A DNA stretch of 64,000 bases from assembly GCA_944332725.1 (NCBI GenBank), contig CALVKO010000001.1, forward strand, positions 719 to 64,718. Direction: 5' to 3'. This DNA is from an uncultured Bacilli bacterium (GTDB lineage Bacteria; Bacillota_I; Bacilli_A; RF39; UBA660). The notes beneath the pieces were generated by a model. The model was not told where the DNA came from, searched no databases, and saw nothing but the letters and a program-made list of their open reading frames with translations. Below, piece after piece: positions 11,151 to 48,382 of this stretch (the stretch's first letter is position 1; each line of letters opens with the position of its first letter). Position numbers and translations under genes: made by a program.

Positions 11151-11922
11151 TTAGTTATTTTCTAATATTTTTTCAACTTCACTAATTAATTCTTCTTTAT
11201 TTGGAATATAATATGTGTATGTTGAAGCAAATATATTATTAGATAATCCACCTAAAGCATATTCCATAGTTACACCTTTTTTACCAGTACAAAGAATAAT
11301 TCCTACTGTTTCATTATCAAATTCATCTTTAATTTCTTTATTATAATAATTAACATACATATTCATTTGCCCTGCATATTCTAGTTTCATATCATCCATT
11401 TTTAAATCTATTAAAACATATGATCTTAATATCTTATTATAAAAGCAAAGGCCAACATAATAATGTGTATAATGATGAATCAATTTGTCTTTTTAATTCT
11501 CTTTTAGACCATTTAGAATTAATGCACTCTTTTTCATAAAATTTTCTTTCATCATCATCTTCAATATAAATTAAATAACAATAATGACTCCAACTCAAAT
11601 TTCCAGCCAGTGGTTGGAAATTTTTGTACCTAATATAAAATAGTCTCATATTATATAAACCAGATAAACTAAATCCTGTTCCAAATTTATTAGTTAATTT
11701 TTTAGATAATTTTTTTAATACATCTTTTCCATAATCTGCTCTAATATTTCCGTTTTGTTCATTTTCCACAATAATTTTACCAATCATAAAATTTGTTTCA
11801 ATTAAAGTATTATTTATTTGATAAACCATTTTGGTTTTATTTTCAGTAATTACATTTGATATTTGATTATATATATTAGTTATTATTTTATCACTATTTT
11901 TTTCTACTACATTTGTTTGCAT
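11151..11922 (-). pseudogene. YhcG/DUF1016 PD-(D/E)xK nuclease family gene, decayed by an internal deletion plus frameshift.
   Basis: Two overlapping ORFs (11437-11922 and 11151-11483) align to the N- and C-terminal thirds of the intact paralogs at 36364-37398 and 47327-48382 (LSWSHY..., IDLK..., YVNYY..., GILL... blocks). The central block around the GFxFxGxQ motif, which contains motifs essential for the nuclease fold, is absent. Confidence 0.7.
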
Positions 11923-12125
11923 TTTTATTCCTCCTAAAGTTATAATATTTATTATTTTCTTACACTAATTAACATTTTTTAATGTATTATAATTTTATCA
12001 CAAATTTATAGTTCTAAAACATTTTCTTTACTTATTTTAATATGTCTTTCAATACAATATATAAATATTTTTAGTTGCAATATTGCTTATTTAATGATAA
12101 AATAATGTGCATAGGAGTTGATAAA

Positions 12126-12875
12126 ATGAATGTTTCTTACACTTATATCGATGGTAAAGCAATAATTTTTGATGAAAACGGAAATCAAGTACCAATTAAT
12201 TATTATAATAATTTAGATGATGTATTGATCCAAGAAAATGTAATAGAAACTATTGAAAATAAAATAAAAGAATTAGGCAACATAAAAATTTTACCTAAAA
12301 AGAGATTTATTCCATTTACAACAATTTGTGCCACTATTGTCATATTAGTAGCGCCTTTAATATTAGGTTTAATATTTGGAATAAATATGTATACGACTTC
12401 TGTTAGTACTGCTTTTGGAGAAATGAATTTGTTTAAAATGATAGCGATTATTTGTGGAGTTACAATTGAACCAGTTGCAATAATTACTGATATTTTAAAT
12501 CATTCAATATATAATGATTTTGTTAAACATAACAATGCAAAAGTTAGTGAATTAGAATTTTTAAAAAGTAAATTAATTAAGGAAAAAGAAAAATTAAATT
12601 CTTTAAAAAAGGAAAGCTTTGAATGTGAAGAAAAGAAAGATTTTAAAACAGTAAAAGTAAATGATATAGAAGAATTAAAACAACTTAAAAATATGTTACT
12701 TTTATATTATGATTTAGGATATAATTCTAAAAAATATTATACTTATCAACAACAAGGAAAATTAAGAAAAAAACTAGCTAAAAAATATAGTGAAGAAGAT
12801 ATTAAATTAATTGAACAATATTTAGAAGAAAAAGGACCAACATTAGTAAAAAAACAACTAAAAAACTTACATTGA
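12126..12875 (+). CDS. Hypothetical membrane protein.
   Basis: An AGGAG RBS lies 8 nt upstream of the ATG at 12126; the ORF-track TTG start at 12075 is less likely. A central hydrophobic segment is followed by a K/E-rich C-terminal coiled coil. Confidence 0.55.
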   Translation: MNVSYTYIDGKAIIFDENGNQVPINYYNNLDDVLIQENVIETIENKIKELGNIKILPKKRFIPFTTICATIVILVAPLILGLIFGINMYTTSVSTAFGEMNLFKMIAIICGVTIEPVAIITDILNHSIYNDFVKHNNAKVSELEFLKSKLIKEKEKLNSLKKESFECEEKKDFKTVKVNDIEELKQLKNMLLLYYDLGYNSKKYYTYQQQGKLRKKLAKKYSEEDIKLIEQYLEEKGPTLVKKQLKNLH

Positions 12876-12896
12876 TTTGTAAGTTTTGTTTTTATA
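12861..12896. terminator. Terminator hairpin overlapping the stop of the preceding + gene and lying 3' of tRNA-Cys.
   Basis: AAAACTTACA-TTGATT-TGTAAGTTTT followed by a T-run. Confidence 0.55.
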
Positions 12897-12897
12897 T

Positions 12898-12972
12898 TGG
12901 AGGGCCCAGCCGGACTTGAACCGACGCTCGGGGAGTTGCAGTCCCATGCCTTACCAACTTGGCTATGGACCC
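12898..12972 (-). tRNA. tRNA-Cys (anticodon GCA).
   Basis: On the minus strand: GGGTCCA acceptor stem pairing with TGGGCCC, D-arm GCCAAGTTGGTAAGGC, anticodon loop CTGCAAC (U33-GCA-A37), T-arm GGTTCAAGTCC, and an encoded 3' CCA. Local GC content is much higher than the surroundings. Confidence 0.85.
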
Positions 12973-13033
12973 ATGTAAATAAATTATAGCAAAATATTTT
13001 TACTTAATCAAGTATTTTACTATAATTTATTCA

Positions 13034-14785
13034 TTATTTAAATAAATTATACTTAATTATATTATTTGAAGTTTCAATTAATGATTTAGCATACTCTTCT
13101 TTTTCATTAATATATTCTTTTGTAACTTCACTATATTCTTTATAATCTTCAAGTTGATTATTATAATATATTTTATTAGTAACCCAATTACCATTTGGAA
13201 AAACTACTATATTATCATCCAAATTAAATATATCATTGCCTAAAGCATATTTAGTATCAACGCCAAACATATTACCAATAGTTGGCATTACATCAATAGA
13301 TCCCATTAATGTATCTATTTCTTGATGTTTGATATCTTCTCCCCAAATAATTAAAGGAACTTTTGTTAATTCTTCATATTCATAAAAATCTATTTTTTTG
13401 CCTAAATATTTTTCATATTCTTTTTTTGTAAATTTGGCATCATGATCACCATAAATTACAATTATTATATCATCTTTATTTTCTAACTTATTAATAAATT
13501 CACCTATTGCTTCATCAGCATAATGAACTAATTTAATATAATTACCTATTTTAGTGCCTTCAGCATCACCAACATCAAATTCGATTCCTTCGGTATAAAA
13601 AGGTGTATGATTAGTTAGCATAATTAAAGTACCATAAAATTTATCATATTCTAAATTGTTAATAATGTCGACTGATTGATTAAAGAACGATTTATCGGAT
13701 AATCCTAAACCTATTTTATCACTCAAATCATAGTCATCATAACAATAAAACCTATCATAACCTATTTTTTTATACATTTTATCACGATTCCAATATGAGC
13801 ACAAATTTCCATGCATACTAAATGTATAATATCCTTTTTCCTTAAAAGACTTTATCATTGAATTATATTCATTATTTTCATAATTAACAAATACTGTACC
13901 AGTAGCAATCGGTAATATTGAGTTAGTTATCGTAAATTCAGTATCACTGCTAGTTCCAACGCTTTCTTCTGAATAATAATTAGTAAAATAAATTCCTTCA
14001 TTTTTTAATTTATATAAATTAGGTGTTATAGTTTCATTTATAAACATACTTTGGATACTTTCCGCGTGAATAAATAAAACACTTTTATCTTTAAATATAT
14101 TTGTATATTCATTAGTTTCTGTTTTCTTATTACTATAAAACTGCTCTACTTCTTCTTTAGCATCTTCATAACCACAATATGGACAAATAAATTTAGAAGT
14201 CATATAAAATAAATCATTTAATTGATATGTATAAATTCCCATATTTCTTACAACATATGACTTATTCCAATCGTGTTTTAAACGGTAAATATCATTAGTA
14301 TTAAAAGTTAATAAAGATATCACTAAAATTATAAAATAAATTAAAATATTTTGCTTAAATGATTTTATATCTTTTTTATTAGAAATTTTTTTATATAATA
14401 TTATCATTAAAATTATTTGCCACAAAAATACAAAATCATTTAATTGAATAACCCCTGTTACTGCTTCACTTGGAAGAAGAAACGCTAAATAAAGAGAACT
14501 TAACAAATATATTGAAGCAAAATCACTATAATTATTATAATACATTGAATTAATTATACATAAAGATGTTAATATTATAGATGTGATTAAAAAATATAAA
14601 TTTCTTTTTTTAAATAAAAAAGAAAAAGCATAAATAAACATTAAGAAACTTAAATCAAATAACAAAAATCTTAAATCTTTAAAACCTACTGTTAAATAAA
14701 GTAAAATACAACTATTAATTAAATTTGAAATAATAAAAAATATTCCTAAATCTTTTAATGATGATGGAAGAATAAACTTACGCAT
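13034..14785 (-). CDS. LTA synthase family protein (membrane-anchored sulfatase-like phosphoglycerol transferase).
   Basis: N-terminal multi-TM region followed by an extracellular sulfatase-like domain (YFTNYYSEESVGTSSDTEFT, HTPFY). Confidence 0.8.
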   Translation of the reverse strand: MRKFILPSSLKDLGIFFIISNLINSCILLYLTVGFKDLRFLLFDLSFLMFIYAFSFLFKKRNLYFLITSIILTSLCIINSMYYNNYSDFASIYLLSSLYLAFLLPSEAVTGVIQLNDFVFLWQIILMIILYKKISNKKDIKSFKQNILIYFIILVISLLTFNTNDIYRLKHDWNKSYVVRNMGIYTYQLNDLFYMTSKFICPYCGYEDAKEEVEQFYSNKKTETNEYTNIFKDKSVLFIHAESIQSMFINETITPNLYKLKNEGIYFTNYYSEESVGTSSDTEFTITNSILPIATGTVFVNYENNEYNSMIKSFKEKGYYTFSMHGNLCSYWNRDKMYKKIGYDRFYCYDDYDLSDKIGLGLSDKSFFNQSVDIINNLEYDKFYGTLIMLTNHTPFYTEGIEFDVGDAEGTKIGNYIKLVHYADEAIGEFINKLENKDDIIIVIYGDHDAKFTKKEYEKYLGKKIDFYEYEELTKVPLIIWGEDIKHQEIDTLMGSIDVMPTIGNMFGVDTKYALGNDIFNLDDNIVVFPNGNWVTNKIYYNNQLEDYKEYSEVTKEYINEKEEYAKSLIETSNNIIKYNLFK

Positions 14786-15462
14786 ATTATCAAAGCTCCT
14801 ATTACAAATCCTATTATATTATTATTTTTATCTTGATGTTTTAAATGTTCTAACAATTCAAAAAAAACTATATATACTAACATTCCTAAGGTAATAGCAA
14901 ACATCATTCCTATAAAATACTCACTAATTTCACCTATTAAAAATAATATAAATCCACCAAAGAAAGTAGATAAAGAAATAATAAAACTAATCATAATTAT
15001 TTTTGTTTTATTATATTTTGCATCTTTTAATGTACTACCTATTACCATACCTAATGGAATATTATGTAATCCAATTCCTATTCCTAATAAAATACCTAGA
15101 TTAAAATTTTTATTTAATGTCGAATATAAAATCATTCCTTCTATTAAATTGTGAATAATTAAGGCAATTGAAGACATTAAACCAATATGAAAAACGTGTT
15201 CTTTATGATTAGAATGTTCGTGATCTGGAATAAATAAATCTAATAACTTTAATAAAATAAAACCAATTAAAGCATATATAATCATCTCAAAATAATTAAT
15301 ATGTTCTAATGTATGAGGTATTACTTCTAAAAATATTAAACAAAATAATACACTAAAAGCAATACTGATAGATAATTCAGATATTTTTTTCTTTCTTTTA
15401 AATAATAATATTATAACTGTTCCCAATAAGACAGTTAATCCAAATAAAAATGTAATAAACAT
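14755..15462 (-). CDS. ZIP family metal (zinc) transporter.
   Basis: His-rich loop HDHEHSNHKEH and the conserved HNxxEG / GLHNIPLG TM motifs. Confidence 0.8.
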   Translation of the reverse strand: MFITFLFGLTVLLGTVIILLFKRKKKISELSISIAFSVLFCLIFLEVIPHTLEHINYFEMIIYALIGFILLKLLDLFIPDHEHSNHKEHVFHIGLMSSIALIIHNLIEGMILYSTLNKNFNLGILLGIGIGLHNIPLGMVIGSTLKDAKYNKTKIIMISFIISLSTFFGGFILFLIGEISEYFIGMMFAITLGMLVYIVFFELLEHLKHQDKNNNIIGFVIGALIICVSLFFHHH

Positions 15463-15466
15463 AACA

Positions 15467-17716: not shown

Positions 17717-17761
17717 AGTAATTACCTCTTTATTATTTTATCACAACAAACTAATTATATC

Positions 17762-17810: not shown

Positions 17811-17812
17811 TT

Positions 17813-20800
17813 TTAATACCTACAATTATCAAAATTATTTGGATCATTATATGATCTATATCTATCATCTACGCATACTCCAGGTTGATTTTTAGCACCT
17901 GTTATATCTATTAAATAAGATAAATAATCGCTTATACAAGTTTTACCAGTTCCTGTATTACATTTAAAATCATATGTTTTTCCACTATAACTTCCATAAT
18001 ATTCAGCATAAGAATTTTCATCATTATAATTTCTTATTTCTTTAATAATCGAAGGCGTTAAGATAAATGTATACATTGGTTCTTCAGAATAAATTTCGTG
18101 TCCTTCTACATCACGATTATTTAATATAAATTCATCAACTACAGGATTAGTATTTGAGCAATTTGTTCTATCACCTAATCCATAACACCAATTTGAACCT
18201 GTTTCTCTACCACTAGCATCTATATCAGGGAATGGATCATATAAATCTATTGGTCTATATATTAAATTAATATCACCTTTATTAGGATTATTAGGATCAT
18301 TTGGATTATCTGGATTATCTGGATCATTTGGATTATCTGGATCATCTTCAGGTATTAATTCTGAAAAAACCTCAAATTGACATTGCCAATTACCATACTT
18401 TTCTTTATCTATCGCATCTAATATGCTATCAACAGCAGTTGATTTATTTGGAACTTTGTAACCTAAATTACTATATGTAATTGACAATTCACCATTACCA
18501 TATTCTTGACCATAAATACCATCTGGGGTTTTATATTCTACTGGAAAATTACTATATCCTAAATAAATGTAATTAAAAGTTTTTCCTTGTGAAATATATT
18601 GTGATTTTAATGTTTCTAGTTGTGATGCATTAAATGATATATTATCGTCTTTATTAATATATTCATATATACCAGCAGGAATATTAAAATCAATATTAGC
18701 ACCTTTGGTCATTTCAACTTTTGTACATTTTTTTATACCTAACATTTGTCTCGTACATTTATTTGTACTTGTATTACAACTTGTAAGTACTTCAATACCA
18801 CCACTTACAGTTTGGCAATCATTTTTATTCACTTTTTCTGTATATTCGATTTTTTTATCCATTTCTTCATTAACACTATATAATCCAGTAGAACCATTAA
18901 TTGTATAATTATATTTAACTATTGCACTAGGTTCGACAATATATAACCATTGATCCCACGATGAGCCTTCACCATCTGCAGTTGACATTGAACTTATCCA
19001 AGTTGCTCCATTATCTTCATTATAACATTTCTTCATTTGATCATATATATATTTAGCATCGTCTTTCATATTATCCCAAGTTTGATACTTTGAATCTCTA
19101 CCAAACCTGTCATCACTAGGATAACCACTACAAGAACAAGCACTACCTGCAGAACCATGTGCATATGTCGCTCCACTTCCATAAGTAGCAGAATCCCATT
19201 TAATACATGTTTCATCCCAGTATCTATGCCTACGACATCCTCCACCACAAGTACCCTTACCATCAGCACATGGATGTGTTGGATACCAAGATACACATTC
19301 GCTGCAACCATTCTTTACAGTATATTGTTTCACACTAGCTTGCTGATCTCTAGCAACTAAATATGTATTAAATGCTTTTTCTATTTCATTATTTTTATTT
19401 TTTAAATCAGTAGTGAATTTATTCCATTCAATTGATTTAGTTTTACATGTTCTACTACCACTAACACTATGTCCATTCCATACAAAATGTTGACCTGCTT
19501 TTACTTTAATTGTATTAGAATTAAATGCTCCAGTTAAGTTTTCTATACAATAAACTTCACAATAATCTGAAGTAATATTTTCATCATAATATGTTAATGG
19601 TTGATTCTTATCAGACCATTTATGTTCATTTATTGTATACATAGCATTTTCATCTGAAAAAACACAATATTTCCAATAATCTTCTTCATTTAATTCCTGT
19701 GATGTATCAGTGTAAAAAACATTTTCTTGATTGATACATGTTCCCACATTATAACTTGGTGTACAATTATATTTTTTCTTAATATCAACCTTTTCATCTT
19801 GAGTTATACAACCGGCAGATTGATAACTAGAAATTGTCCAATTTGTTCCGAATTGTGAATTATACAATTCAAAACATTGCTTATATAATTCTTTATTTTT
19901 ATCTAAATATTCATCAGTAAATGACGTTGAAGGGTATAAAGGTAATTTCTGACAAGATCTTATTATTTTGTTTTTCTCGTTGGTTTGTTCATTATCCGAA
20001 GTACAATTATAAAGACAATTATAAAAACGCCAAGTATTTCCCCATCCTTCTTGAGAACGACATTTTGAATAACATCCATAATATCCTAAAGTACTTTCCT
20101 CATCTAATTTATTAAAATCAACACTTTCGCAGGTTGCTGTTGCAAAACCACAATTTAGATTTTCATATTTTATATAATCCCATTGCGTAACTACACCAAC
20201 AGACGATGGATTCGTTTCCGAAATTTTATTGACTTGTTCTTTTACAGACTCAACAAATGAAACAAAGAAACTTTGTTTCTGTACAAATACACTTTTAATC
20301 TGATTTTTTACTAAATTATATAATTCAATATTATTAGAGTTTTTATATGCATCATAAACACCATAACATGTACATTCATTTATGTACCATACTTTATCAG
20401 CAACATTTGTCTTACCATTAACAGTATATTTTATACCATTGGCAACCTCTGGTAATGCATAAATACCATTTAAACCACTTCTTCTATAGGTAGATTCTAA
20501 TTTACTCATAAAACTAGAGTAATTACTAATACCACTATTTACTTCTTCACATGTCAGACTTAATTTAACAGTATCTTTAAAATACACTAAACCTATTCCT
20601 GCACCTTTATTGCCAGTAACATATTGTTCTGCTAAAATATCACTACTTTTACCACCACTAGTTTTAGCACACACATTTTGAAGCGAAACGCCACCGCTAT
20701 AAGAAGCAGATTCACTTAAATCAACAATATTCAAATTTCCATTAAAATAACTAGTACTTGATGCTCCTGGAACATTTTTATATCTTGTAATTATATCACC

Positions 20801-21598
20801 AGTGGTTAAAGCAGCACAAGGTAAAACTCTACCCATTGCTGAATTTACTGGTTTCCAGTTTACATACCCTAAAAATCCTAATTCATAACTTGTTCCAAGA
20901 TACATTTTGCCATCAAAAGTCAACATCGTAATAGGCTCAACAGTAATCCACAAATTATTAAACAAAGCATCATCAGAATTAGAAGATGGATTAACAGATT
21001 CAGCAATATTTTTTAAATCATCTGCAGATAATCCAAATAATGTTGAATACAAACTAACGATTCTTGAATCATTTATATCCAATTTATCCGTATCAGCCCA
21101 TTCCCATATTCTATCCAAATCCCAATTTTCAATATATGATTGTAATGAAACATTAAAAGGTGAAAATAAACTACTTAAACTTTCGGCAGTATAAATATAA
21201 CCCTTAAAACTTTCCCATGGATTGCCATCACCAGATTTAGTTAATTTATTATAAACATTACACCCAGATGTTCCCATTATATATTGAACTTTACTACATC
21301 CTGTCCCTAATACAACATAATTATCACTACTGCCTAATATATTATAATGTTCGTTATATGCTATTATATTAGACGAATGACCAACTTGGGTACCATCTGT
21401 TTTTAATAATGTAACTCTCATACCCCTAATATATTTTGGACCATCTGAAGTTGCAAAATTTGTCCAATAATTATACTTATCAGTATTACTACCAGAACCT
21501 GAAGGCAAACTCGTAATATCCGTTGCAGCATTAATCTTTACATAACATACTGCTATACTAATCGCTAAAATTAATAAAACAAAATACTTTTTTTTCAT
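17813..21598 (-). CDS. Large (1261 aa) secreted Cys-rich protein of unknown function with a low-complexity DPDNPN repeat.
   Basis: N-terminal signal peptide MKKKYFVLLILAISIAVCYVKINA. Roughly 50 cysteines. Imperfect tandem repeats encode PEDDPDNPNDPDNPDNPNDPNNPN (nt ~18290-18360). The single frame is uninterrupted; internal small ORFs on other frames are spurious. Confidence 0.7.
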   Translation of the reverse strand: MKKKYFVLLILAISIAVCYVKINAATDITSLPSGSGSNTDKYNYWTNFATSDGPKYIRGMRVTLLKTDGTQVGHSSNIIAYNEHYNILGSSDNYVVLGTGCSKVQYIMGTSGCNVYNKLTKSGDGNPWESFKGYIYTAESLSSLFSPFNVSLQSYIENWDLDRIWEWADTDKLDINDSRIVSLYSTLFGLSADDLKNIAESVNPSSNSDDALFNNLWITVEPITMLTFDGKMYLGTSYELGFLGYVNWKPVNSAMGRVLPCAALTTGDIITRYKNVPGASSTSYFNGNLNIVDLSESASYSGGVSLQNVCAKTSGGKSSDILAEQYVTGNKGAGIGLVYFKDTVKLSLTCEEVNSGISNYSSFMSKLESTYRRSGLNGIYALPEVANGIKYTVNGKTNVADKVWYINECTCYGVYDAYKNSNNIELYNLVKNQIKSVFVQKQSFFVSFVESVKEQVNKISETNPSSVGVVTQWDYIKYENLNCGFATATCESVDFNKLDEESTLGYYGCYSKCRSQEGWGNTWRFYNCLYNCTSDNEQTNEKNKIIRSCQKLPLYPSTSFTDEYLDKNKELYKQCFELYNSQFGTNWTISSYQSAGCITQDEKVDIKKKYNCTPSYNVGTCINQENVFYTDTSQELNEEDYWKYCVFSDENAMYTINEHKWSDKNQPLTYYDENITSDYCEVYCIENLTGAFNSNTIKVKAGQHFVWNGHSVSGSRTCKTKSIEWNKFTTDLKNKNNEIEKAFNTYLVARDQQASVKQYTVKNGCSECVSWYPTHPCADGKGTCGGGCRRHRYWDETCIKWDSATYGSGATYAHGSAGSACSCSGYPSDDRFGRDSKYQTWDNMKDDAKYIYDQMKKCYNEDNGATWISSMSTADGEGSSWDQWLYIVEPSAIVKYNYTINGSTGLYSVNEEMDKKIEYTEKVNKNDCQTVSGGIEVLTSCNTSTNKCTRQMLGIKKCTKVEMTKGANIDFNIPAGIYEYINKDDNISFNASQLETLKSQYISQGKTFNYIYLGYSNFPVEYKTPDGIYGQEYGNGELSITYSNLGYKVPNKSTAVDSILDAIDKEKYGNWQCQFEVFSELIPEDDPDNPNDPDNPDNPNDPNNPNKGDINLIYRPIDLYDPFPDIDASGRETGSNWCYGLGDRTNCSNTNPVVDEFILNNRDVEGHEIYSEEPMYTFILTPSIIKEIRNYNDENSYAEYYGSYSGKTYDFKCNTGTGKTCISDYLSYLIDITGAKNQPGVCVDDRYRSYNDPNNFDNCRY

Positions 21599-36282: not shown

Positions 36283-36349
36283 ATCTTCACTCCTAACAAT
36301 AACATTATACTATAAATATATGATTTAATCAATATTAAAATAATTAATA

Positions 36350-36377
36350 AAAAATCCTAACAACTAGGATTTTTCAA
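36350..36377. repeat. Direct repeat copy A (about 28-30 bp) containing the stop and terminator hairpin. It is identical to 37453-37482.
   Basis: AAAAATCCTAACAACTAGGATTTTTCAA. The TAG stop of the DUF1016 gene lies inside the hairpin at the same position as the gatB TAG in copy B. Confidence 0.7.
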
Positions 36378-37398
36378 TTAAATTTAAATTTTTCTTTTCT
36401 TCTTCAATAATTTCAATTAATTGTTCTTCGGTAGGAAAATTTAATCTATATTGTGATGCAAAAATAGTTTTATTATCTTTTGGTAAAGTATATTTTACAA
36501 CTGTTTTATTTTTATCAGTTGATAATAAAATACCAATAGTTGAATTTTCATCATCTTCCTTAATTACTCGATCATAATAATTAACGTATAATTGCATTTG
36601 TCCAATATCTTGCGGAGTTATTTTAGCAGTTTTTAAATCTATTATCACAAAACATTTCATAATTCTATTATAAAATACTAAATCCGGATAAAAATGATCT
36701 TCTTCGATTGTTATTCTAACTTGAGAACCAACAAACATAAAACCACGACCTAATTCAAGTAAAAACTCTTTTAAATGTTTTAAAATGTTTTTTTCTAAAT
36801 CCGACTCTAAATAAATTGTATTTTCTTTAATGTCTAAAAATTCTAATATAAAAGGATCTTTGACCAAATCTTCTAATTTATTTATAATATGTCCTTTATT
36901 AGCCAGCTCCAAAACTTTTTCTTTATCCTTTGACAATTTTAAACGTTCATATAATAAAGAGCATATTTGCCTTTGTAATTCTCTTACACTCCACATAGAA
37001 TTAATTGCTTCATGCAAATAAAAATTTCTTTTATCATTATCATTTATTTTTAATATTTCTAAATAATGAGACCAACTTAATTTGGAAGACACTGTTGTCC
37101 AAATTGGATATGTTAAATAAAATTTTCTCATTGTTCTTAAATTTCTAGATGAAAAACCTTTCCCAAATTCTTTAGTTAATTTTAATGACAATTTTTCTAA
37201 AACTGCTTCACCATAAGTTGCCCGTTCATCACCTTTTTGAATAGTCATTATAATTTTACCGATATTCCAATAAAGATTTAACATTTCTGTATTAACGGTT
37301 GTATATAATTTCTTACGACTATTAATTACTAAGCTTTTTATTTCATTAAACGTTAATTCAAATACTTGATTATCTATTTCTTGTAACATTTTAATCAC
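36364..37398 (-). CDS. YhcG/DUF1016 family PD-(D/E)xK nuclease, intact.
   Basis: N-terminal YhcG_N-like region (LYWNIGK, KLSWSHY) and a C-terminal nuclease core (ELGRGFMFVGSQ, IDLK). It is a paralog of 47327-48382. Confidence 0.8.
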   Translation of the reverse strand: MIKMLQEIDNQVFELTFNEIKSLVINSRKKLYTTVNTEMLNLYWNIGKIIMTIQKGDERATYGEAVLEKLSLKLTKEFGKGFSSRNLRTMRKFYLTYPIWTTVSSKLSWSHYLEILKINDNDKRNFYLHEAINSMWSVRELQRQICSLLYERLKLSKDKEKVLELANKGHIINKLEDLVKDPFILEFLDIKENTIYLESDLEKNILKHLKEFLLELGRGFMFVGSQVRITIEEDHFYPDLVFYNRIMKCFVIIDLKTAKITPQDIGQMQLYVNYYDRVIKEDDENSTIGILLSTDKNKTVVKYTLPKDNKTIFASQYRLNFPTEEQLIEIIEEEKKNLNLIEKS

Positions 37399-37452
37399 CT
37401 TATATTAAGCATTATACTAAACTTATAATTAATTGTCAATTATAAATTAACA

Positions 37453-37482
37453 AAAAAATCCTAACAACTAGGATTTTTTCAA
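37453..37482. repeat. Direct repeat copy B, the native gatB stop plus terminator hairpin.
   Basis: AAAAAATCCTAACAACTAGGATTTTTTCAA. The gatB TAG stop lies within the stem. Confidence 0.7.
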
Positions 37483-38862
37483 AACATCAATCAATAATTG
37501 ATTAGCTAAACTAGGATTAACTTTTCCTTTACTTTCCTTCATTACTTGACCCATTAAATATTTAATTGCTCGATCTTTTCCTTCTTTAAAATCTTTAACA
37601 GAATCGGGATTAGAACTAACTACTTTATTAATAATTTCAATAACAAAATTATCATCACTTATTTGTTCCATATTATTTTCTTTAATAATTAAATCAACAT
37701 CTTTATCACTTTCTAAGATTATATTAATAATTTCTTTACCTTGTTTACTAGATATACTTTTAATATCTAATTTATTTACTAATTTAATAAAATTTTCTTG
37801 ATTTAATTTAGTATCTTCTATTTTAATAATATTTTTATTTAAATAAGATAATACGTCACCAGTTAATAAATTACTAGCAATAATAGGATTACATTTATCG
37901 ATTACTGATTCTAAGAAATTACAAATATTTTTGTTAGAAATAATTGTTTTAATATTATTATTATTTATGCCTAAAGAAATATATTTATTTTTAAGTTCAT
38001 CAGTTAAAATAGGCATTGAATCACTTATTTCTTTTAACCATTCATCATCAATATAAACATAAGGAATATCTGGTTCTGGAAAATATCTATAATCATTACC
38101 AGTTTCTTTATAACGCATTAAAATAGTAGTTTTAGTCTTATCATCGAATCTTCTTGTTTGTTCTACTATTTTTTCACCTTTTTTAATTAATTCTTCTTGC
38201 CTTTTAACTTCATAATCGATAGCAAGTCCAACAGCAGATATCGAACCGATATTTTTTACTTCACATTTTGTGCCTAATGTATCACTATCACTTACAGATA
38301 CATTAACGTCACATCGCATACTTCCTTCTTCCATTTTAACGTCACTTATACCTAAATATAATAATGTTTCTCTTAATTTTTCTAGATATTCCATTGCTTC
38401 TTGGCCACTATTTATACAAGGTTTAGTAACTATTTCAATTAAAGGGACTCCTGCTCTATTAAAATTTAATAAAGTATCAGTTGTATGAATACTTTTACAA
38501 GTATCTTCTTCTATATGCATTCTTTCTAAATATATTTTTTTATTAGATATAGGAATATAACCATCATAACCAATTGGTGTATCTTGCTGGGTAATTTGAT
38601 AACCTTTTGGTAAATCAGGATAAAAATAGTTTTTACGATCAAAATGCATTAATCTATTTATTTTACAATTAAATGCTAGGCAAGCCTTTAAAGCAAAATC
38701 AATAATTCCTTTATTTAATCTTGGAAGTACACCAGGATAACCCAAATCTATTACATTAATATTTGTATTAACTTCATCATTAAAATTATTTTTACTTAAG
38801 GAAAAAGCTTTAGCCATTGTTTTTAATTCTACATGGACTTCAATTCCAATTGTTGGTTTCAT
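37468..38862 (-). CDS. gatB: Asp-tRNA(Asn)/Glu-tRNA(Gln) amidotransferase subunit B.
   Basis: N-terminus IGIEVHVEL and the conserved GatB/YqeY C-terminal domain. It sits in the gatC-gatA-gatB order. Confidence 0.95.
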   Translation of the reverse strand: MKPTIGIEVHVELKTMAKAFSLSKNNFNDEVNTNINVIDLGYPGVLPRLNKGIIDFALKACLAFNCKINRLMHFDRKNYFYPDLPKGYQITQQDTPIGYDGYIPISNKKIYLERMHIEEDTCKSIHTTDTLLNFNRAGVPLIEIVTKPCINSGQEAMEYLEKLRETLLYLGISDVKMEEGSMRCDVNVSVSDSDTLGTKCEVKNIGSISAVGLAIDYEVKRQEELIKKGEKIVEQTRRFDDKTKTTILMRYKETGNDYRYFPEPDIPYVYIDDEWLKEISDSMPILTDELKNKYISLGINNNNIKTIISNKNICNFLESVIDKCNPIIASNLLTGDVLSYLNKNIIKIEDTKLNQENFIKLVNKLDIKSISSKQGKEIINIILESDKDVDLIIKENNMEQISDDNFVIEIINKVVSSNPDSVKDFKEGKDRAIKYLMGQVMKESKGKVNPSLANQLLIDVLKKS

Positions 38863-40286
38863 TATACTTCCTCCTTTAATTTATTTTCAATAAAATACGC
38901 TAATTGATAAATTTTATCTTCTTCAAAATAATTTCCGATAATATGCATACCAACTGGCAAATTGTTTTTATAACCAACTGGCAAACTTAATGCAGGAAGC
39001 CCCGCCATATTAACAGGTATAGTTAATAAATCATCATAAAAACTTTTTAATGCATCATCTTGTTTAGTTCCCAATTTATAAGCAACATCAGTATTAGTTG
39101 GTCCAATAATCAAATCATATTTACTTAAGATATTTTTAAAACTATCAGTCATTTCTTTTCTTAATTTCAATGCTTTATAATAATATGTATCAGCATTTTC
39201 ACCACTTAAAATATAAGAACCAATCATTATTCTTCTTTTTACTTCATTACCAAAACCAATAGTTCGAGTATTTTTATATAATTCATCAATATTTTTAAAA
39301 TTGTCAATTTTTAATCCATATCTAATACCATCATACCTAGCCAAATTACTACTTGCTTCACCTAAAGCAATAACTTGATATAAAGGTATAGCATATTCTA
39401 AATAATCAATATCTACATAATCAACTTGACAACCTTTTTCTTTCAATAAATTGATTATATTAGTTACTTTTTCTCGAACTATTTTATCAATTACTTCACT
39501 CATATAATAGTTAGGAACAGCAATTTTTAAATTATTTACATCTTGTCCCATTAAAGAAGTATAATCTTTAACTTCATTTAAAGAAGAAGTTAAATCATTT
39601 TTATCATAACCACTTATAACATTCAATAATAAAGCATTTTCATAGACATTTCTTGTAATTGGTCCCACTTGGTCTAGACTTGAAGCAAATGCAATAACAC
39701 CATATCTTGAAACTCTACCATATGTTGGTTTTAACCCGACTAAACCGCAAAAACTAGATGGTTGTCTAATAGATCCACCTGTATCAGTTCCTAAAGAAAA
39801 TGGCGTAATACCAGCAGCAACACAAGAAGCAGAACCAGAAGAAGAACCACCTGGAACTAAAGTTTTATCGATAGGATTTAAAGTATTACCAAAATAACTA
39901 GTTTCACCAGTAGACCCCATAGCAAATTCATCCATATTAGTTTTACCGATAATAATCATATTTTTTTCTTTTATTTTTTTAATAACTGTAGCATCATAAA
40001 TTGGAATAAAATCTTCTAAAATATGACTAGCAGCAGTTGTTCTTAAATCTTTAGTTACAATATTATCTTTAATAGCAATTGGTAATCCAAATAAAATATT
40101 ATCTACTTCTTTTTCTTCTAATTCTTTAGCCTTTTTAATAGCCTCTTCTTTATTTAAAGTTATAAAACAATTTAAATTAGTTTCATCTATTCTAGCAAAT
40201 GCTTCATTAACTAAATCAATTGGCTTTATTTCTTTATTTTTTAATTTTTCATTTATTGTTTTTATATCTAAATCTAAGTATCTCAT
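38862..40286 (-). CDS. gatA: Glutamyl-tRNA(Gln) amidotransferase subunit A (amidase signature).
   Basis: Amidase signature GGSSSGSA. Length is 474 aa. Confidence 0.95.
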   Translation of the reverse strand: MRYLDLDIKTINEKLKNKEIKPIDLVNEAFARIDETNLNCFITLNKEEAIKKAKELEEKEVDNILFGLPIAIKDNIVTKDLRTTAASHILEDFIPIYDATVIKKIKEKNMIIIGKTNMDEFAMGSTGETSYFGNTLNPIDKTLVPGGSSSGSASCVAAGITPFSLGTDTGGSIRQPSSFCGLVGLKPTYGRVSRYGVIAFASSLDQVGPITRNVYENALLLNVISGYDKNDLTSSLNEVKDYTSLMGQDVNNLKIAVPNYYMSEVIDKIVREKVTNIINLLKEKGCQVDYVDIDYLEYAIPLYQVIALGEASSNLARYDGIRYGLKIDNFKNIDELYKNTRTIGFGNEVKRRIMIGSYILSGENADTYYYKALKLRKEMTDSFKNILSKYDLIIGPTNTDVAYKLGTKQDDALKSFYDDLLTIPVNMAGLPALSLPVGYKNNLPVGMHIIGNYFEEDKIYQLAYFIENKLKEEV

Positions 40287-40567
40287 TCTATCACCTTTGG
40301 AACTACAATATAATCACCTTTTACTCTTTTAGCATTTTTGAAAGCATCATTTTTACTAATATGATTTTCAATAACATCTAAAGAATAAACATTTCTATTA
40401 TCACTTGGACTAATCATTATGTCTTCATTTTTAATATCAACTTTAAGTATTTTATCAATTTCGGTCAAAATATCTGTTAATTGTTTCTGATATTTACTCA
40501 TTTCATCATCTTCGATATTTAATTTTGCTAAATCAGCAATATGTCTTACTTTTCCTTCATCTATCAT
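40283..40567 (-). CDS. gatC: Amidotransferase subunit C.
   Basis: 94 aa. HIADLAKLNI..DE motif. Position upstream of gatA. Confidence 0.9.
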   Translation of the reverse strand: MIDEGKVRHIADLAKLNIEDDEMSKYQKQLTDILTEIDKILKVDIKNEDIMISPSDNRNVYSLDVIENHISKNDAFKNAKRVKGDYIVVPKVIE

Positions 40568-40569
40568 AT

Positions 40570-42956: not shown

Positions 42957-43980
42957 TTATTTCACCTCGAAAATATTTAATTGTTGTAATAATAATTATT
43001 GAAAGTGGTAAAGATATAACAATACCAATAAATCCTAGTAATATACCGCCACCAAATACAGCAGCAATTACTATTATTGGATGAACTTGATTACTTTTTC
43101 CATATACTAATGGATTTAAAACATATGAATCTATTAATGAAGATATCAATGTTACAATTATAACTGTAATACCTAATGAAGTACTTAGAGCAAAACCTGT
43201 TAATACCCCAATTACTTGAACTAGTATTCCGCCAAAATAAGGAATAAAGTTACCTAATCCTGATAAGAAACCTAATAATAAAGCATTAGGATGACCAATT
43301 ATATAGTAAATTAAAGTATATTCAAAAAAACTGATGCATACAAGAATTAAGAATCCTTTAATATAATTTTTTATTTCATGGTCTAATAAAGCAACATAAT
43401 TATATACTTTAGTAGATTTATGAGATAAATATTTTTTTATACCATTTCTTATTTTATCCATATCTAATAAAAAGTAAATACCAGATGCTAGAGCAATAAA
43501 AACATTTGTAATAACACTTATTGAAGCATTTATAGTTTTAACTGCTCCATCAGATACATATTTTCCAACATTACTAATTATTTCATTAAATGTTTTAAAT
43601 AAAGTATCACCTAAAGTACCTAAATCAATATTAAAATCAGTTGTTATATCTTTAATAAAAATAATTAATGAGTCAATTAAACTAACTATTTGTGTTGACA
43701 AAAGTGGTATTAATAAAGTTATTAAAGTAGCAATTATACCAATTAAAATAGCAACTATTATCCCAACTCCTAAACCTTTTGGTATTTTTTTACTTTCTAA
43801 AAACTCTAATAAAGGATATAAAGCATAAGCAATAACAAACCCAGCAAATAAAGGTAATATTATTTTTAATATTTTATTTAAGATGCCCATCCACAATGGA
43901 TTAGCCTGATAAATAAAAAAACAAATTACTGCTATTAAAGCAATATTAATTAATTTAAAATCTAATTTATTTTTTATCAT
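42934..43980 (-). CDS. AI-2E family transporter (PerM-like).
   Basis: Eight TM segments. The size (~350 aa) and topology are characteristic of this family. Confidence 0.75.
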   Translation of the reverse strand: MIKNKLDFKLINIALIAVICFFIYQANPLWMGILNKILKIILPLFAGFVIAYALYPLLEFLESKKIPKGLGVGIIVAILIGIIATLITLLIPLLSTQIVSLIDSLIIFIKDITTDFNIDLGTLGDTLFKTFNEIISNVGKYVSDGAVKTINASISVITNVFIALASGIYFLLDMDKIRNGIKKYLSHKSTKVYNYVALLDHEIKNYIKGFLILVCISFFEYTLIYYIIGHPNALLLGFLSGLGNFIPYFGGILVQVIGVLTGFALSTSLGITVIIVTLISSLIDSYVLNPLVYGKSNQVHPIIVIAAVFGGGILLGFIGIVISLPLSIIIITTIKYFRGEINVKRNSK

Positions 43981-43993
43981 AAATCCTCACTTT

Positions 43994-44413
43994 CTAATTA
44001 AGTAATTTTTCTTTATTTTCAATTTTGTTTATTCCAACAATATTTTTATCATTGGATAATAATTTTAATTCTTTTATGGCAACATTATTTAATTTTTCTA
44101 ATCGTTCTTTTTGCGAAATTCCACTTTCAATCATATTGATGGACTCATAGTAAAAGATTGGTTAGCAGAATCATTTTTAAACTCGCGAGATTCCGCTAGT
44201 TTAAAATTTTCATTAAATAGTTCTTCCCATAAGCAATAAAATTCAAATGAACTTTTATTACTCATCCATTTAATTATAACATCACCAGGATTATTTGAAT
44301 TTTTATAACGTGCCAAATCAGTTAAAGATATATAATCTATTTCATTAATTCTTATAACACTTACTAAACTATCATTTACTTTTAATTCTGTTTTTATAAT
44401 TTTATTTTCGATA
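43994..44413 (-). pseudogene. KilA-N domain gene remnant. The N-terminal domain ORF has no canonical start, and a separate 46-aa C-terminal ORF overlaps it by ATGA.
   Basis: IRINEIDYISLTDLARYKNSNNPGDVIIKWMSNKSSFEFYCLWEELFNENF matches the KilA-N domain consensus. A GGAGGTG RBS lies 9 nt after the dtd stop but is followed only by ATT/ATC codons. The fragment stops at TGA at 44131-44133, overlapping the ATG of a second short ORF. Confidence 0.45.
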
Positions 44414-44434
44414 ATTTACACCTCCAATTTATAA

Positions 44435-44872
44435 TTAATCTTCCAATATGATTGTTACAGGTCCATCATTACTTATTTCAACTAACATATCTGCTTGAAA
44501 AATACCAGTTTCTAAATTAATATTATATTTTTTTATTTCTTCATTAAATAATTCATATAATTTTTTTGCTTCATCGGCTTTCATCGAATTAATATAACTA
44601 GGACGATTGCCTTTTTTACAATCGGCATATAAAGTAAATTGTGATATTGACAAAATAGAACCATTTACATCTAAAATTGATTTATTCATAATATGGTTTT
44701 CATCATCAAAAATTCTTAAATTAACTAATTTTTTAGTTAATTTTTTTATTTCTTCTATCGTATCATTATGAGTAAATCCAACTAAAACAACTAATCCATC
44801 ATCTATTTTACCAACTATCTTGTTATCTACTGTAACTTTTGATTTTTTACTTCTTTGAACCACTAATTTCAT
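44435..44872 (-). CDS. dtd: D-aminoacyl-tRNA deacylase.
   Basis: 145 aa. N-terminus MKLVVQRS and the GP motif. Conserved position downstream of relA. Confidence 0.9.
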   Translation of the reverse strand: MKLVVQRSKKSKVTVDNKIVGKIDDGLVVLVGFTHNDTIEEIKKLTKKLVNLRIFDDENHIMNKSILDVNGSILSISQFTLYADCKKGNRPSYINSMKADEAKKLYELFNEEIKKYNINLETGIFQADMLVEISNDGPVTIILED

Positions 44873-47007
44873 TTTATCAACCTTTCTACAGATAAAACAT
44901 TTGGTATCATGTTTAAATCATTCATATATTTTGTTAATCTTTCTTTATTTTCTACTAAAACAGTTATCTGATATATATAATCATTACCACTTGATAATGA
45001 TTTAATACTTTCAATTGTTATATCTGTATTAGATGTCTTAGCAACTATATTCATTAATATATTATTATCTAAAGATTTAATTAATAAACTAGTCGGATAT
45101 TTTTTATTAGTATCATTCCATTTTACTTCAATTAATCTTTCGTTTAATTCACTAACATTAGGGCAAACCATTCTGTGAACAGTTATACCATTACCTTTAG
45201 TTATATATCCCACTATTCTATCACCTTTAATTGGTTTACAGCATGATGCTATGTTTACTTTAATATCATCAATACCCTCTACTTTAATATCATTTTTAAT
45301 ATTAGGTAAAATTACTTCCTTATCTTTTGTTTTATTTAAAATTATTTCTTCTTTAGTTATATTATCATCAGTAATAATATTTACTACTTGAATAGGTGTA
45401 TATTTATTATTTCCAATATTAATATATAACTCATTAATATCTGCACATTTTAATTCTTCTAATATTTTATCGATGTTTTCTGTAAATATTGCATTAGATA
45501 GTTTTCTTTTTCTTAATTCTTTATTTAGTAAATCTTCACCTTTATTATGATTATCTTCTTTAGTAGTTTTATTAAAAAATGCTTTAATTTTATTTTTGGC
45601 TTGTGATGTTTTAACAAAATTTAACCATTCTTGACTAGGCGTAGAACTTTTATTTGTATTAATTTTAACTATATCATTATCTTTCAATTTGTAATCTAAT
45701 GGAACAATATTATTATTTACAATCGCTCCTATTGTCGTATCTCCCACTTTAGAGTGGACACGATACGCAAAATCAATCGGAGTTGAACCATTTGGTAATT
45801 CAATTACATCACCCATTGGCGTAAAAACATAAATTGTATCCTTTAAAACATCCTCTTTAACCGAATCAACAAATTGATCTTCACTTTCCTCATTTTTTAA
45901 TTCCATAATAACTCTAAAGAACTGTAATTTTTGTTCCATCTCACTTTGCATATTTGATTTGCCTTCTTTATATGACCAGTGAGATGCGATACCACATTCA
46001 GCCACCTTATCCATTTCATAAGTTCTTATTTGAATTTCAAATAATTGTCCATCTATCCCAAATACCGTTGTATGCAATGATTGATACATATTTGTTTTAG
46101 GCATTGCAATATAATCTTTAAATCGCTTAGGAATTGGTCTAAATTTCGAATGAATTAATCCTAAAGTTTGATAACACTCTGCTTCTGTGTCAACAAAAAC
46201 TCTTAGAGCTAATAAATCATATATTTCATTAAATGATTTACCTTTATCTAATTTTTTATAAATACTATAAATACTTTTACTTCTTCCTTTTATTTCATGT
46301 TTAATATTATGTTCGTTTAATAGTTTAGAAACACTTTCAATCATTTCAACAACATAATTATCTCTCTCTACTTTAGTTTTATTTAACTTTTCTACAATTT
46401 GATAATAAGCATCTGGTTTTAAATATCTTAACGATAAATCTTCTAATTCTGATTTAATACTATTAATACCTAATCTATGTGCAATTGGTGTAAATATATC
46501 TAAAGTTTCCTTAGCATTAGCCTTTTGTCTTTTTTCTGATAAAGCCCATAATGTACGCATATTATGAAGTCTATCTGCTAATTTTAAGATAATAACCCTT
46601 ACATCTTCGGTCATTCCAACTAATATTTTTCTTTGATTTGCAATCATAGCCTCTGTATCGCCACTAAAATTTAATTTATTTATTTTAGTTATACTTTCAA
46701 CTAATTTTGCAACTTCAACACCAAATAAATTTTCAATTTCTTCATAAGAAACTTCACAATCTTCAATGGTATCATGAAGAAGTGCTGCTTCTATTGTTTT
46801 ACTATCAGCATGAATGCCCGCTAAAATAAAAGCAACATTTAAAGGATGGATTATATAATCTTCTCCACTATTTCTCTTTTGACCATTATGTTTTATATTA
46901 GCAAATTCAAAAGATTTCTTTATTTCATTTAATTCTTCTTCATTTTTTATATATTTTTTTAATTTTTCTTCTAACTGTATATATTTACTTATTTTTATTA
47001 CTTTCAT
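44869..47007 (-). CDS. relA: Bifunctional (p)ppGpp synthetase/hydrolase RelA/SpoT.
   Basis: HD domain (HxxxHD...), synthetase domain, TGS and ACT regions. Length is 712 aa. Confidence 0.95.
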   Translation of the reverse strand: MKVIKISKYIQLEEKLKKYIKNEEELNEIKKSFEFANIKHNGQKRNSGEDYIIHPLNVAFILAGIHADSKTIEAALLHDTIEDCEVSYEEIENLFGVEVAKLVESITKINKLNFSGDTEAMIANQRKILVGMTEDVRVIILKLADRLHNMRTLWALSEKRQKANAKETLDIFTPIAHRLGINSIKSELEDLSLRYLKPDAYYQIVEKLNKTKVERDNYVVEMIESVSKLLNEHNIKHEIKGRSKSIYSIYKKLDKGKSFNEIYDLLALRVFVDTEAECYQTLGLIHSKFRPIPKRFKDYIAMPKTNMYQSLHTTVFGIDGQLFEIQIRTYEMDKVAECGIASHWSYKEGKSNMQSEMEQKLQFFRVIMELKNEESEDQFVDSVKEDVLKDTIYVFTPMGDVIELPNGSTPIDFAYRVHSKVGDTTIGAIVNNNIVPLDYKLKDNDIVKINTNKSSTPSQEWLNFVKTSQAKNKIKAFFNKTTKEDNHNKGEDLLNKELRKRKLSNAIFTENIDKILEELKCADINELYINIGNNKYTPIQVVNIITDDNITKEEIILNKTKDKEVILPNIKNDIKVEGIDDIKVNIASCCKPIKGDRIVGYITKGNGITVHRMVCPNVSELNERLIEVKWNDTNKKYPTSLLIKSLDNNILMNIVAKTSNTDITIESIKSLSSGNDYIYQITVLVENKERLTKYMNDLNMIPNVLSVERLIK

Positions 47008-47011
47008 TTTA

Positions 47012-47287
47012 TCACTCTTCTTTAAAATAAATTTCTCTTTTTCTTAAATTTAATTTACTTTTTAAATAATCATCAATTAATAAATCATCGACATTCAAAA
47101 CATCACTAACCATTTCGTATAATGATAAATCCTTAGCCTTTTTCCATTTAATCTCTTTTAAATAATTCCATATATCTTCTATTTCAATATATTTATAACC
47201 ACTTCGATGCATTTCTCCTTTTTTAGTTATCAACGCTGGTTTTAATCTATTATATAATTCTTCTAAACTATTAAATTCTATTTCCAT
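47012..47287 (-). CDS. comN: Post-transcriptional regulator ComN-like protein.
   Basis: 91 aa. The LKPAL...GY..I..EDIW..L....WKK pattern resembles ComN/YrzD. Lying between relA and a spoVB-like gene matches Bacillus synteny. Confidence 0.5.
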   Translation of the reverse strand: MEIEFNSLEELYNRLKPALITKKGEMHRSGYKYIEIEDIWNYLKEIKWKKAKDLSLYEMVSDVLNVDDLLIDDYLKSKLNLRKREIYFKEE

Positions 47288-47326
47288 TTTACTTCATTCC
47301 TTTTTTTACAATTATTTTAAAGAAAA

Positions 47327-48382
47327 CTATAAAAAATCATTTTCTAATCTTTTTTCGATATCTTCAATACTAGGTAATGTATTTTCTAGAAATTCTGGTA
47401 TTTCTGATAAAATTTTATATTCACTCACACCAATTGGTTTATTAATATCTTTTAGTGCTAATTCAGCAGTTACTTTCTTTTTGTCTTTACATAACAAAAT
47501 ACCAAAAGTAGGATTATCTTTTTCATCTTTAATATACTTATCTACAGCACTTAAATAAAAATTAAGTTTTCCTGCATATTCTGGTTTAAATTCAGTTGTT
47601 TTTAGTTCAATTACAACATAACTTCTAACCTTTAAATTATAAAATAATAAATCAATATAATAATCTTCATTATCTATCTCTAAATGATATTGTCTACCTA
47701 TGAATGCAAAGCCATTACCTAATTCTAATAATAATTTGGTAATATTGGATATTAATTGTCGCTCAATATCTAATTCTTTTAAATCTTTATTATTTATTAT
47801 AAAATCAAATATATAAGGATCTTTTAATAAATATGCAACTTGTTCATTATTTGGACTTGGTAGCGTATTATCAAAATTTGTAGTTTTATTCTCTAATAAT
47901 GCTTGTCTTTCATATAATTTACTTGCTATTTGATGGATTATTATAGGTCTAGACCAACCATTTTTAACAGTTTCTTCAATATACCAATTTCTAATATTTT
48001 TTTCTTTTACTTGATCCATTATCGTTGTAATAGATGACCAAGGAATTTTTGCAACATAATGTTGCAAAAATTCATCATTGTCAAATTCAGTTGCAAATTT
48101 TTGCATATACCTTAAATTCCTAGCAGACATTCCTTTAATATTAGGAAATTCTATTTTTAAATCTTTTGCTAAAGTATCTATAAATGATAATCCCCATTTA
48201 TTATTCTCTATTAATTTTAAACCAATTTTATAATACATTAATATCAAATCTTTATTAGCATTGTCAATTATTTTATTTCTTGTAGTTATTAAAGTATTTT
48301 TTATATCATTTAAAACTTCAAAATATTGATTATTATTTTCTAGCATTATTACACTTCCTTTTAAATATTTTTTAAAACTCAT
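47327..48382 (-). CDS. YhcG/DUF1016 family PD-(D/E)xK nuclease, intact (third paralog).
   Basis: ELGNGFAFIGRQ and VVIELK motifs. The N-terminal region is homologous to the other copies. Confidence 0.8.
   Translation of the reverse strand: MSFKKYLKGSVIMLENNNQYFEVLNDIKNTLITTRNKIIDNANKDLILMYYKIGLKLIENNKWGLSFIDTLAKDLKIEFPNIKGMSARNLRYMQKFATEFDNDEFLQHYVAKIPWSSITTIMDQVKEKNIRNWYIEETVKNGWSRPIIIHQIASKLYERQALLENKTTNFDNTLPSPNNEQVAYLLKDPYIFDFIINNKDLKELDIERQLISNITKLLLELGNGFAFIGRQYHLEIDNEDYYIDLLFYNLKVRSYVVIELKTTEFKPEYAGKLNFYLSAVDKYIKDEKDNPTFGILLCKDKKKVTAELALKDINKPIGVSEYKILSEIPEFLENTLPSIEDIEKRLENDFL

Follow-up and report, generated by a model that had tools for sequence, protein, structure and literature searches.

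We analysed a 64,000-nucleotide stretch (the window) of contig CALVKO010000001.1 from an uncultured Bacilli bacterium, which carries three genes of the DUF1016/YhcG family of predicted PD-(D/E)xK nucleases, here called copies 1 to 3. We consider it rather probable that these genes are stand-alone endonuclease cargo of defence type, held as single-gene cassettes or in a small islet within intergenic hot spots and turned over by recombination in the flanking core DNA and by deletion. All three sites are variable hot spots between core genes that in most sister genomes are empty or contain other accessory genes, and the three genes, judged by their divergence, are three anciently separated lineages of the family. 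The host, a low-GC gut bacterium, has Candidatus Faecisoma and other uncultured Bacilli among its relatives; the G+C content of the window is about 24% and its minus strand carries nearly all genes. Throughout, L-numbers denote loci or contigs of relatives and P-numbers denote database proteins.

Three DUF1016/YhcG genes at variable intergenic sites

A first-pass annotation of the window had reported three DUF1016/YhcG genes, the first of them decayed, lying beside rnhB and tRNA-Cys, directly after gatCAB, and between comN and a spoVB-like gene. Our analysis bears this out: all three genes are true Pfam matches, both domains of the family are matched, copies 2 and 3 are intact, and the neighbours are found where they had been placed (Table 1). 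Copy 2 matches DUF1016_N with an E-value of 7.9e-48 and YhcG_C with 2.5e-55 (profile positions 2-148 of 157), and copy 3 gives 1.7e-35 and 9e-60 (positions 3-157 of 157). In the list of open reading frames (ORFs) the two genes run over 36364-37398 and 47327-48382; the GTG at 37398 that opens the listed copy 2 sits within the ribosome-binding site (RBS), and the true starts are likely, from homology, the ATG codons at 37389 and 48346. Exact-sequence look-ups of the ORF-list translations of both genes gave no match because the listed starts lie too far upstream; the 341- and 339-aa products came from homology searches, and that of copy 3 is identical to the database protein P0121.

Copy 1 is split into two overlapping ORFs. 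The first (11437-11922) holds the N domain (DUF1016_N, E = 1.3e-42), and the second (11151-11483) matches YhcG_C at profile positions 57-152 only (E = 3.7e-30). Alignment with intact 344-aa orthologs, which occupy the same locus in L103-L110 with 93-97% amino-acid identity, revealed about 98% nucleotide identity and a single internal deletion of 263 bp, joined at 11471/11470. This deletion shifts the reading frame and accounts for the truncated YhcG_C match, which makes copy 1 a pseudogene. In addition, the codon of the catalytic Asp has changed from GAT to GGC (Asp to Gly) at 11453-11451. Given the high identity, the single deletion and the altered Asp codon, copy 1 is a recently inactivated pseudogene. 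The divergent gene next to it, orf266, belongs to the same inserted islet and matched no Pfam or PADLOC family. In L103-L110, a homolog of 244-246 aa is transcribed divergently from the intact copy-1 ortholog, and orf266 may be a functional partner of copy-1-type DUF1016 proteins. It is the sole plus-strand gene of its stretch.

To follow the sites through relatives, we scanned species-representative genomes for RelA and obtained 80 loci from uncultured Bacilli and Mycoplasmatota metagenome-assembled genomes, with RelA identities from 99% to 64%, onto which the window proteins were mapped. Any DUF1016 gene was present in only three of these 80 loci (1.38 Mb in total). The spoVB/comN site, which holds copy 3 in the window, is empty in at least nine relatives (L012, L014, L018-L021, L024, L025 and L027), where the two genes lie 77-79 bp apart. 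It is filled by copy 3 orthologs in L010 (99% identity), L017 (90%) and the contigs L093-L096, and by a RhuM gene that is intact in L011 and decayed in L015, L016 and L023; in L010 and the independent assemblies L111-L115, copy 3 is followed by a fragmented or truncated RhuM gene. The gatB/tm153 site is empty (85-100 bp) in L011, L012 and L023, filled by copy 2 in L010 and L001, and occupied in L014 (18958-19894) by an unrelated 239-aa ORF that matched no Pfam or PADLOC family. For the tRNA-Cys/rnhB site the metagenome scan gave only three loci, and look-ups of orthologs of copy 1 provided better relatives. There, L103-L110 hold an intact copy-1 ortholog together with the orf266 homolog, to which the L103-type contigs (L103-L106) add two further genes, making up a 4.7-kb four-gene islet in L103; L091 carries a single unrelated 370-aa ORF, and L090 about 4 kb of other genes.

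On a relA tree this distribution is patchy. Copy 3 occurs in the pair formed by the window and L010 and again in L017, which is nested among genomes with an empty site, and the relA genes of L014 (empty spoVB/comN site) and L015 (RhuM pseudogene) are nearly identical. The insertion into syntenic blocks that had been noticed at first pass thus takes the form of accessory inserts with presence/absence polymorphism among close relatives. Since the same sites also hold unrelated cargo (RhuM, Fic/VbhA remnants and other ORFs), the come-and-go pattern is a property of the sites and not specific to the nuclease.

The three copies differ widely from one another. Copies 2 and 3 share 33% amino-acid identity and copies 1 and 2 about 44%, while between copies 1 and 3 the C domains are 43% and the N domains 24% identical. 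Each has its own orthologs of 90-100% identity, which occupy the same site in relatives and occur in other gut contigs as well. The copy 2 subfamily contains one relative at 97% (P0001) and then thousands at 74-78%; in that of copy 3, relatives at 99-100% and 90-93% are followed by very many at 84-88%; the copy 1 subfamily has its intact relatives at 93-97%. The family as a whole amounts to 17,042 clusters at 50% identity (E up to 1e-3). An identity of 33-45% between copies means that no recent intragenomic copying took place, and it rules out the proliferation of one element. The first-pass annotation had read the three genes as the multi-copy spread of one such element and had named strong paralog divergence as the observation that would speak against it; this divergence, with separate orthologs for each site, is what we found. 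The distant relative L045 (RelA 66%) carries two more DUF1016 genes, at 1400-2281 and 13747-14613, which share 30-37% identity with those of the window, one of them directly 3' of an AI-2E transporter gene.

Exchange between lineages and the structure of the junctions

Comparison of the window with L010 revealed a tract of high identity centred on copy 3 (Table 1), which runs from the 5' part of spoVB through copy 3 and comN into the beginning of relA; outside it, identity falls to 76-95%. The synonymous divergence (dS) between the two is 0.072 for copy 3, compared with 0.27-0.34 for relA, gatB and copy 2. The high identity and low dS together mark this segment as a recombination tract, and copy 3 and its flanks were therefore exchanged later than the rest of the region diverged. 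The comparison with L017 is mildly suggestive of the same process, with a nucleotide identity of 88% for copy 3 and 78-84% for the flanking comN, relA, dtd and AI-2E genes. Beyond the close relatives, P0175, with 87% identity to copy 3, is flanked by a sortase gene and by glycosyltransferase genes on other gut contigs of 26% GC, and the neighbours of P0009, with 77% identity to copy 2, are lexA and clpX; the subfamilies thus sit at different positions in different organisms. DUF1016 homologs, all below 60% identity, were also present on 528 of 72,556 plasmids and in 15 of 50,697 phage records.

The mobile gene family proposed at first pass accordingly survives in one part: the tract, the other contexts, the plasmids and the few phages all speak for horizontal movement, whereas mobility machinery of its own is missing. 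The inserts contain no transposase or integrase, their contents being the DUF1016 ORF only, plus orf266 at copy 1, and no terminal inverted repeats were found at the copies other than the palindromic hairpins described below. An autonomous transposable element (insertion sequence or transposon) was rejected on these two grounds and for want of near-identical copies. The copies do not transpose themselves within the genome.

The ratio of nonsynonymous to synonymous divergence (dN/dS) is 0.06-0.09 in close comparisons of copies 2 and 3 and 0.09-0.18 in distant ones, where dS is near saturation; by gene, the values are 0.06-0.18 for copy 2 and 0.08-0.09 for copy 3. By this measure the intact copies are under purifying selection, unlike decaying selfish elements.

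A selfish nuclease of homing type has to be weighed here. The free-standing homing endonuclease genes of phage T4 are copied in via recombinational repair, and the seg and mob genes of the T-even phages are nuclease genes between conserved genes, sporadic in occurrence and accompanied by a co-converted flanking tract. A DUF1016 nuclease of this kind would cut the allele that lacks it, or a structure such as the palindromic terminator in cruciform shape, and would then be copied in by recombinational repair. Copy 3 resembles the T-even genes in its sporadic, single-site presence between conserved genes among close relatives and in the tract centred on it, and the decaying copy 1 fits a cycle of invasion, decay and loss. 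Nevertheless, we regard homing as unlikely, because non-nuclease cargo (RhuM, the 239-aa ORF, Fic/VbhA) comes and goes at the same sites in the same way, because purifying selection on the intact copies is strong and 85-88% identity is kept across many genomes, and because DUF1016 is not a recognised homing family and is not known to contain a homing enzyme.

The junctions of copies 1 and 2 bear on the same question. Both are marked by direct repeats that are themselves palindromic, terminator-like hairpins (Table 1). The copy-1 islet is bracketed by a hairpin of 25/26 nt with a variant loop; L091, which lacks the islet, has a single copy of the tRNA-Cys hairpin followed by the same downstream sequence. 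The copy 2 hairpin is likewise present twice in filled genomes and once in empty sites, and its left copy in L001 retains a local loop variant. Folding of the hairpins at the loci is stable, with a free energy (dG) of -8.5 to -11.2 and z scores of -3.3 to -4.6; having fewer than three G-C pairs, they escaped a terminator scan, which gave no hit at any of the three loci. Two further candidates were tried and rejected. Dispersed repeats of the REP (repetitive extragenic palindrome) or MITE (miniature inverted-repeat transposable element) type do not fit, as each hairpin is confined to its own locus, with one in empty and two in filled sites. Nor does a duplication of the whole gatB-tm153 intergenic region around copy 2, since beyond the hairpin 45 of 69 positions match, a level reached by 137 of 2000 shuffles.

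Copy 3 has no significant flanking repeat in the window, where the search of its flanks for cryptic repeats suggested at first pass was carried out. In L010, however, a 74-nt segment made up of the first eight codons of spoVB and the intergenic promoter occurs three times (2716-2789, 3092-3165 and 4562-4635), once before each of three tandem cassettes, namely a VbhA-like ORF, copy 3 with a Fic fragment, and a RhuM pseudogene. Each cassette therefore has its own copy of the same promoter. The arrangement was confirmed in the independent assembly L111, in which the segment occurs twice, at 1394 and 2860. In L112, a fragment of the comN 3' coding region (VDDLLIDDYLKHKLNLK, at about 5040-5095) lies between copy 3 and RhuM, left over from a local tandem duplication that happened earlier.

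For homing, the duplications form the main hint: at copies 1 and 2 it is the hairpin itself that is duplicated, as staggered cutting of a cruciform at its base would produce, and the nuclease domain has a predicted resemblance to YraN and to the Holliday-junction resolvases of archaea (PMC1189080). Taken to its end, this would make DUF1016 proteins structure-specific endonucleases that cut cruciform terminators or empty sites, promote their own insertion and leave a palindrome-length duplication, and thereby self-propagating single-gene elements of a new class, able to do without a transposase; we hold this specific form to be very unlikely. The insert of the 239-aa ORF in L014, which is not a DUF1016 gene, also carries a partial duplication of the target/terminator region, so duplication is not specific to DUF1016, and no hairpin duplication was found around homologs in other contexts (L002, L097). 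Simple repeat-mediated excision was rejected as the whole story, since deletion of RhuM between its short flanking repeats fails to give the empty-site sequence of L014. At 25-26 nt, the palindromic direct repeats are atypical in both length and nature for transposase target duplications. As possible sources we infer a local tandem duplication before insertion, which would make the insertion tolerable, single-crossover integration of circles bearing a copy of the target, homology-facilitated illegitimate recombination, or breaks at the palindromes.

The repeats also recall the att sites of integrative elements, and the copies might be remnant cargo of larger islands, prophages or conjugative elements since eroded to a nuclease gene and att-like repeats. 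Copy 1 would suit such an origin, as its neighbour tRNA-Cys is a classic site for islands, direct repeats flank it on both sides, and its ortholog belongs to a four-gene islet in L103; moreover, DUF1016 is known cargo of integrative and conjugative elements, plasmids and phage WO. Yet no version of the three sites yielded an integrase, relaxase or phage gene, the inserts of copies 2 and 3 measure only about 1.1 kb and have clean junctions, and each site has local repeats of its own sequence, with no common att core. We therefore find an integrative origin quite improbable.

Family assignment and predicted function

The PADLOC profile hidden Markov models of the candidate single-gene system PDC-S02 match copy 2 with an E-value of 3.3e-136 and copy 3 with 2.2e-128, and both halves of copy 1 match as well. 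PHROG 22762 was also matched; no NCBIfam model reached its cut-off. Across 51 sequences of the three subfamilies, E208, D232 and K249 of the E...D...(D/E)xK motif (copy 3 numbering) and the downstream Y264 are invariant. A published prediction describes the DUF1016 family as an E-D-E(I/L/V)K nuclease near DUF91/NucS and the Holliday-junction-resolvase-like nucleases (PMC1189080); in the literature we found, no member has been characterised biochemically. No solved structure in the Protein Data Bank was found by sequence. The AlphaFold model of copy 3 has a mean predicted local distance difference test score (pLDDT) of 65.8, with about 85 in the helical N domain and 56-78 in the nuclease domain. 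With this model, Foldseek matched the nuclease core only, NucS/EndoMS coming first (2vld, E = 1.2e-3, over the core of about 100 aa only), followed by XisH, Bax1 and Can2, and gave no structural match for the N domain.

The similarity to NucS raises the alternative that the three genes are host nucleases of DNA repair or recombination, paralogs of NucS/EndoMS type that are dispensable in some lineages. The weak match of the C domain to NucS (E = 0.007 by sequence, besides the fold match), the purifying selection and the occurrence as solo genes among housekeeping genes would all suit this role. However, DUF1016 is absent from the syntenic region in 77 of the 80 related genomes, its position differs between taxa, the all-helical N domain is unlike NucS, and the NCBIfam NucS model scores 15.5 bits, far under its cut-off of 216. 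A housekeeping repair function is, in our judgement, highly improbable.

On the reading that we favour, copies 2 and 3 are single-gene accessory cassettes and copy 1 a two-gene islet, each set in an intergenic hot spot between core genes. The comparisons show that the cassettes pass between related lineages with flanking core DNA by homologous recombination and are lost by deletion, a step at which copy 1 is caught midway. The intact copies have a promoter of their own (copy 2) or a captured one (copy 3). Their products may act as stand-alone DNA endonucleases of the defence-island type, in which target choice would fall to the all-helical N-terminal domain and cleavage to the NucS-like PD-(D/E)xK domain at the C terminus; several divergent paralogs might then provide different specificities. 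A defence function is probable by family association. DUF1016 and RhuM are both strongly enriched beside invertible restriction-modification genes (PMC9881135). The RhuM protein of the sister genomes matches PDC-S05. The relatives' hot spot holds RhuM and Fic/VbhA remnants; the window itself has only Fic genes, several kb away, and no restriction-modification system.

Several observations weigh against this interpretation. The one PDC-S02 representative examined in E. coli B protected against none of T4, T5 and T7, whereas a RhuM gene (PDC-S05) in the same study did protect from phage (preprint 10.1101/2024.09.26.614923), and no DUF1016 protein is known to act against phages. Next to the copies, the window has neither a restriction-modification system nor any other established defence system. 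The structure model is of moderate quality and its N domain, the putative target selector, is without a structural match. Simple exchange by way of homologous flanks does not predict the 25-26-nt palindromic repeats at copies 1 and 2 or the 74-nt repeats of L010 and L111. Finally, the sporadic distribution and the conversion tract would also be expected from nuclease-driven homing.

Comparison with known systems places the window genes in the YhcG/DUF1016 family (COG4804; PF17761 and PF06250; PDC-S02), with which they share the two-domain architecture, the E-D-(D/E)xK motif and the habit of standing alone as accessory cargo. In the window they are found singly between core genes and not in restriction-modification operons or large defence islands. 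RhuM (PF13310), otherwise known within type I restriction-modification loci, shares the spoVB/comN hot spot, sometimes in tandem with copy 3, and undergoes the same gain, decay and loss, but has an unrelated protein fold. Another parallel is offered by Rickettsia, for which five YhcG paralogs were noted (PMC1189080) and in which DUF1016 is cargo of a conjugative element (RAGE), as it is of the Wolbachia phages (WO) (PMC4316617). There, too, divergent paralogs in a small genome follow a non-host phylogeny and are carried by mobile elements (PMC1189080, PMC4316617); in contrast, no conjugative element or prophage surrounds the window copies, and their host is a free-living gut bacterium rather than an intracellular one.

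If the favoured reading holds, a reduced low-GC gut bacterium keeps probable defence genes as one-gene cassettes at a few hot spots rather than in large islands. The lineage offers three natural states, namely intact, intact and recently exchanged, and freshly inactivated, each with matched empty sites, and this material should be useful for testing the actual role of DUF1016 nucleases. The palindrome-length target duplications are a small observation worth following.

Feature coordinates and other genes

Table 1 Features of the window that bear on the three DUF1016/YhcG genes. Positions are those of the window.
Feature	Position	Strand	Remarks
Copy 1, DUF1016 pseudogene	11151..11922	-	N domain intact, internal deletion, catalytic Asp codon changed
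Copy 2, intact DUF1016 gene	36364..37389	-	341 aa from ATG at 37389, as in P0001
Copy 3, intact DUF1016 gene	47327..48346	-	339 aa from ATG at 48346
orf266	12075..12875	+	Divergent to copy 1; part of the same inserted islet
RNase HII gene (rnhB)	10312-10938		Beside copy 1
tRNA-Cys(GCA)	12898..12972	-	Upstream edge of the variable site holding copy 1
Palindromic terminator-like hairpin after tRNA-Cys	12862..12887	-	AAAACTTACAaatcaaTGTAAGTTTT; dG -8.5; left direct repeat of the copy-1 islet
Right copy of the tRNA-Cys hairpin	11094..11118	-	AAAACTTACAattaaTGTAAGTTTT; dG -10.8; immediately downstream of copy 1
gatC	40283-40567		gat block next to copy 2
gatA	38862-40286		gat block next to copy 2
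gatB	37468-38862		gat block next to copy 2
gatB last codons and palindromic terminator hairpin	37453..37478	-	Left copy of exact 26-nt direct repeat
Right copy of the 26-nt repeat	36349..36374	-	Gives copy 2 its last codons, stop codon and terminator
Promoter-like site of copy 2	37411..37439	-	Own site; TTGACA-17-TATAAT, 12/12 consensus positions
RelA gene	44869-47007		Next to comN
comN (ComN-type, Post_transc_reg)	47012-47287		One flank of copy 3
Right junction copy 3/comN	47288..47326	-	RBS-region similarity, 47292-47318 versus 48352-48371 before the copy 3 start
spoVB-comN intergenic promoter segment	48347..48425	-	Directly before copy 3; predicted to drive it now
spoVB-like gene (Polysacc_synt)	48426-49715		Other flank of copy 3
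High-identity tract, window versus L010	46706..49578		97-99.7% nucleotide identity, 2.9 kb, centred on copy 3

The window holds two Fic-domain genes, both on the minus strand: one at 7268-8350 (360 aa, Fic_N and Fic) and one at 51174-51806 (210 aa, Fic), the latter just downstream of metG. L010 and L111 have Fic-N and VbhA-like remnants at their spoVB/comN hot spot, and Fic looks like a second multi-copy accessory family of the same neighbourhoods. Elsewhere in the window, a 1261-aa ORF on the minus strand (17813-21598) has no Pfam match at E 1e-5. Relative to the window, L103 has an extra AAA_14/DUF4143 gene at 8874-10085, between DHH and acetyltransferase genes. On the 3' side of spoVB, L112 (1614-2636) and L114 (1279-2301) carry a 340-aa reverse-transcriptase gene (RVT_1) at the position taken in the window and L113 by metG-Fic, which marks another variable spot one gene away.

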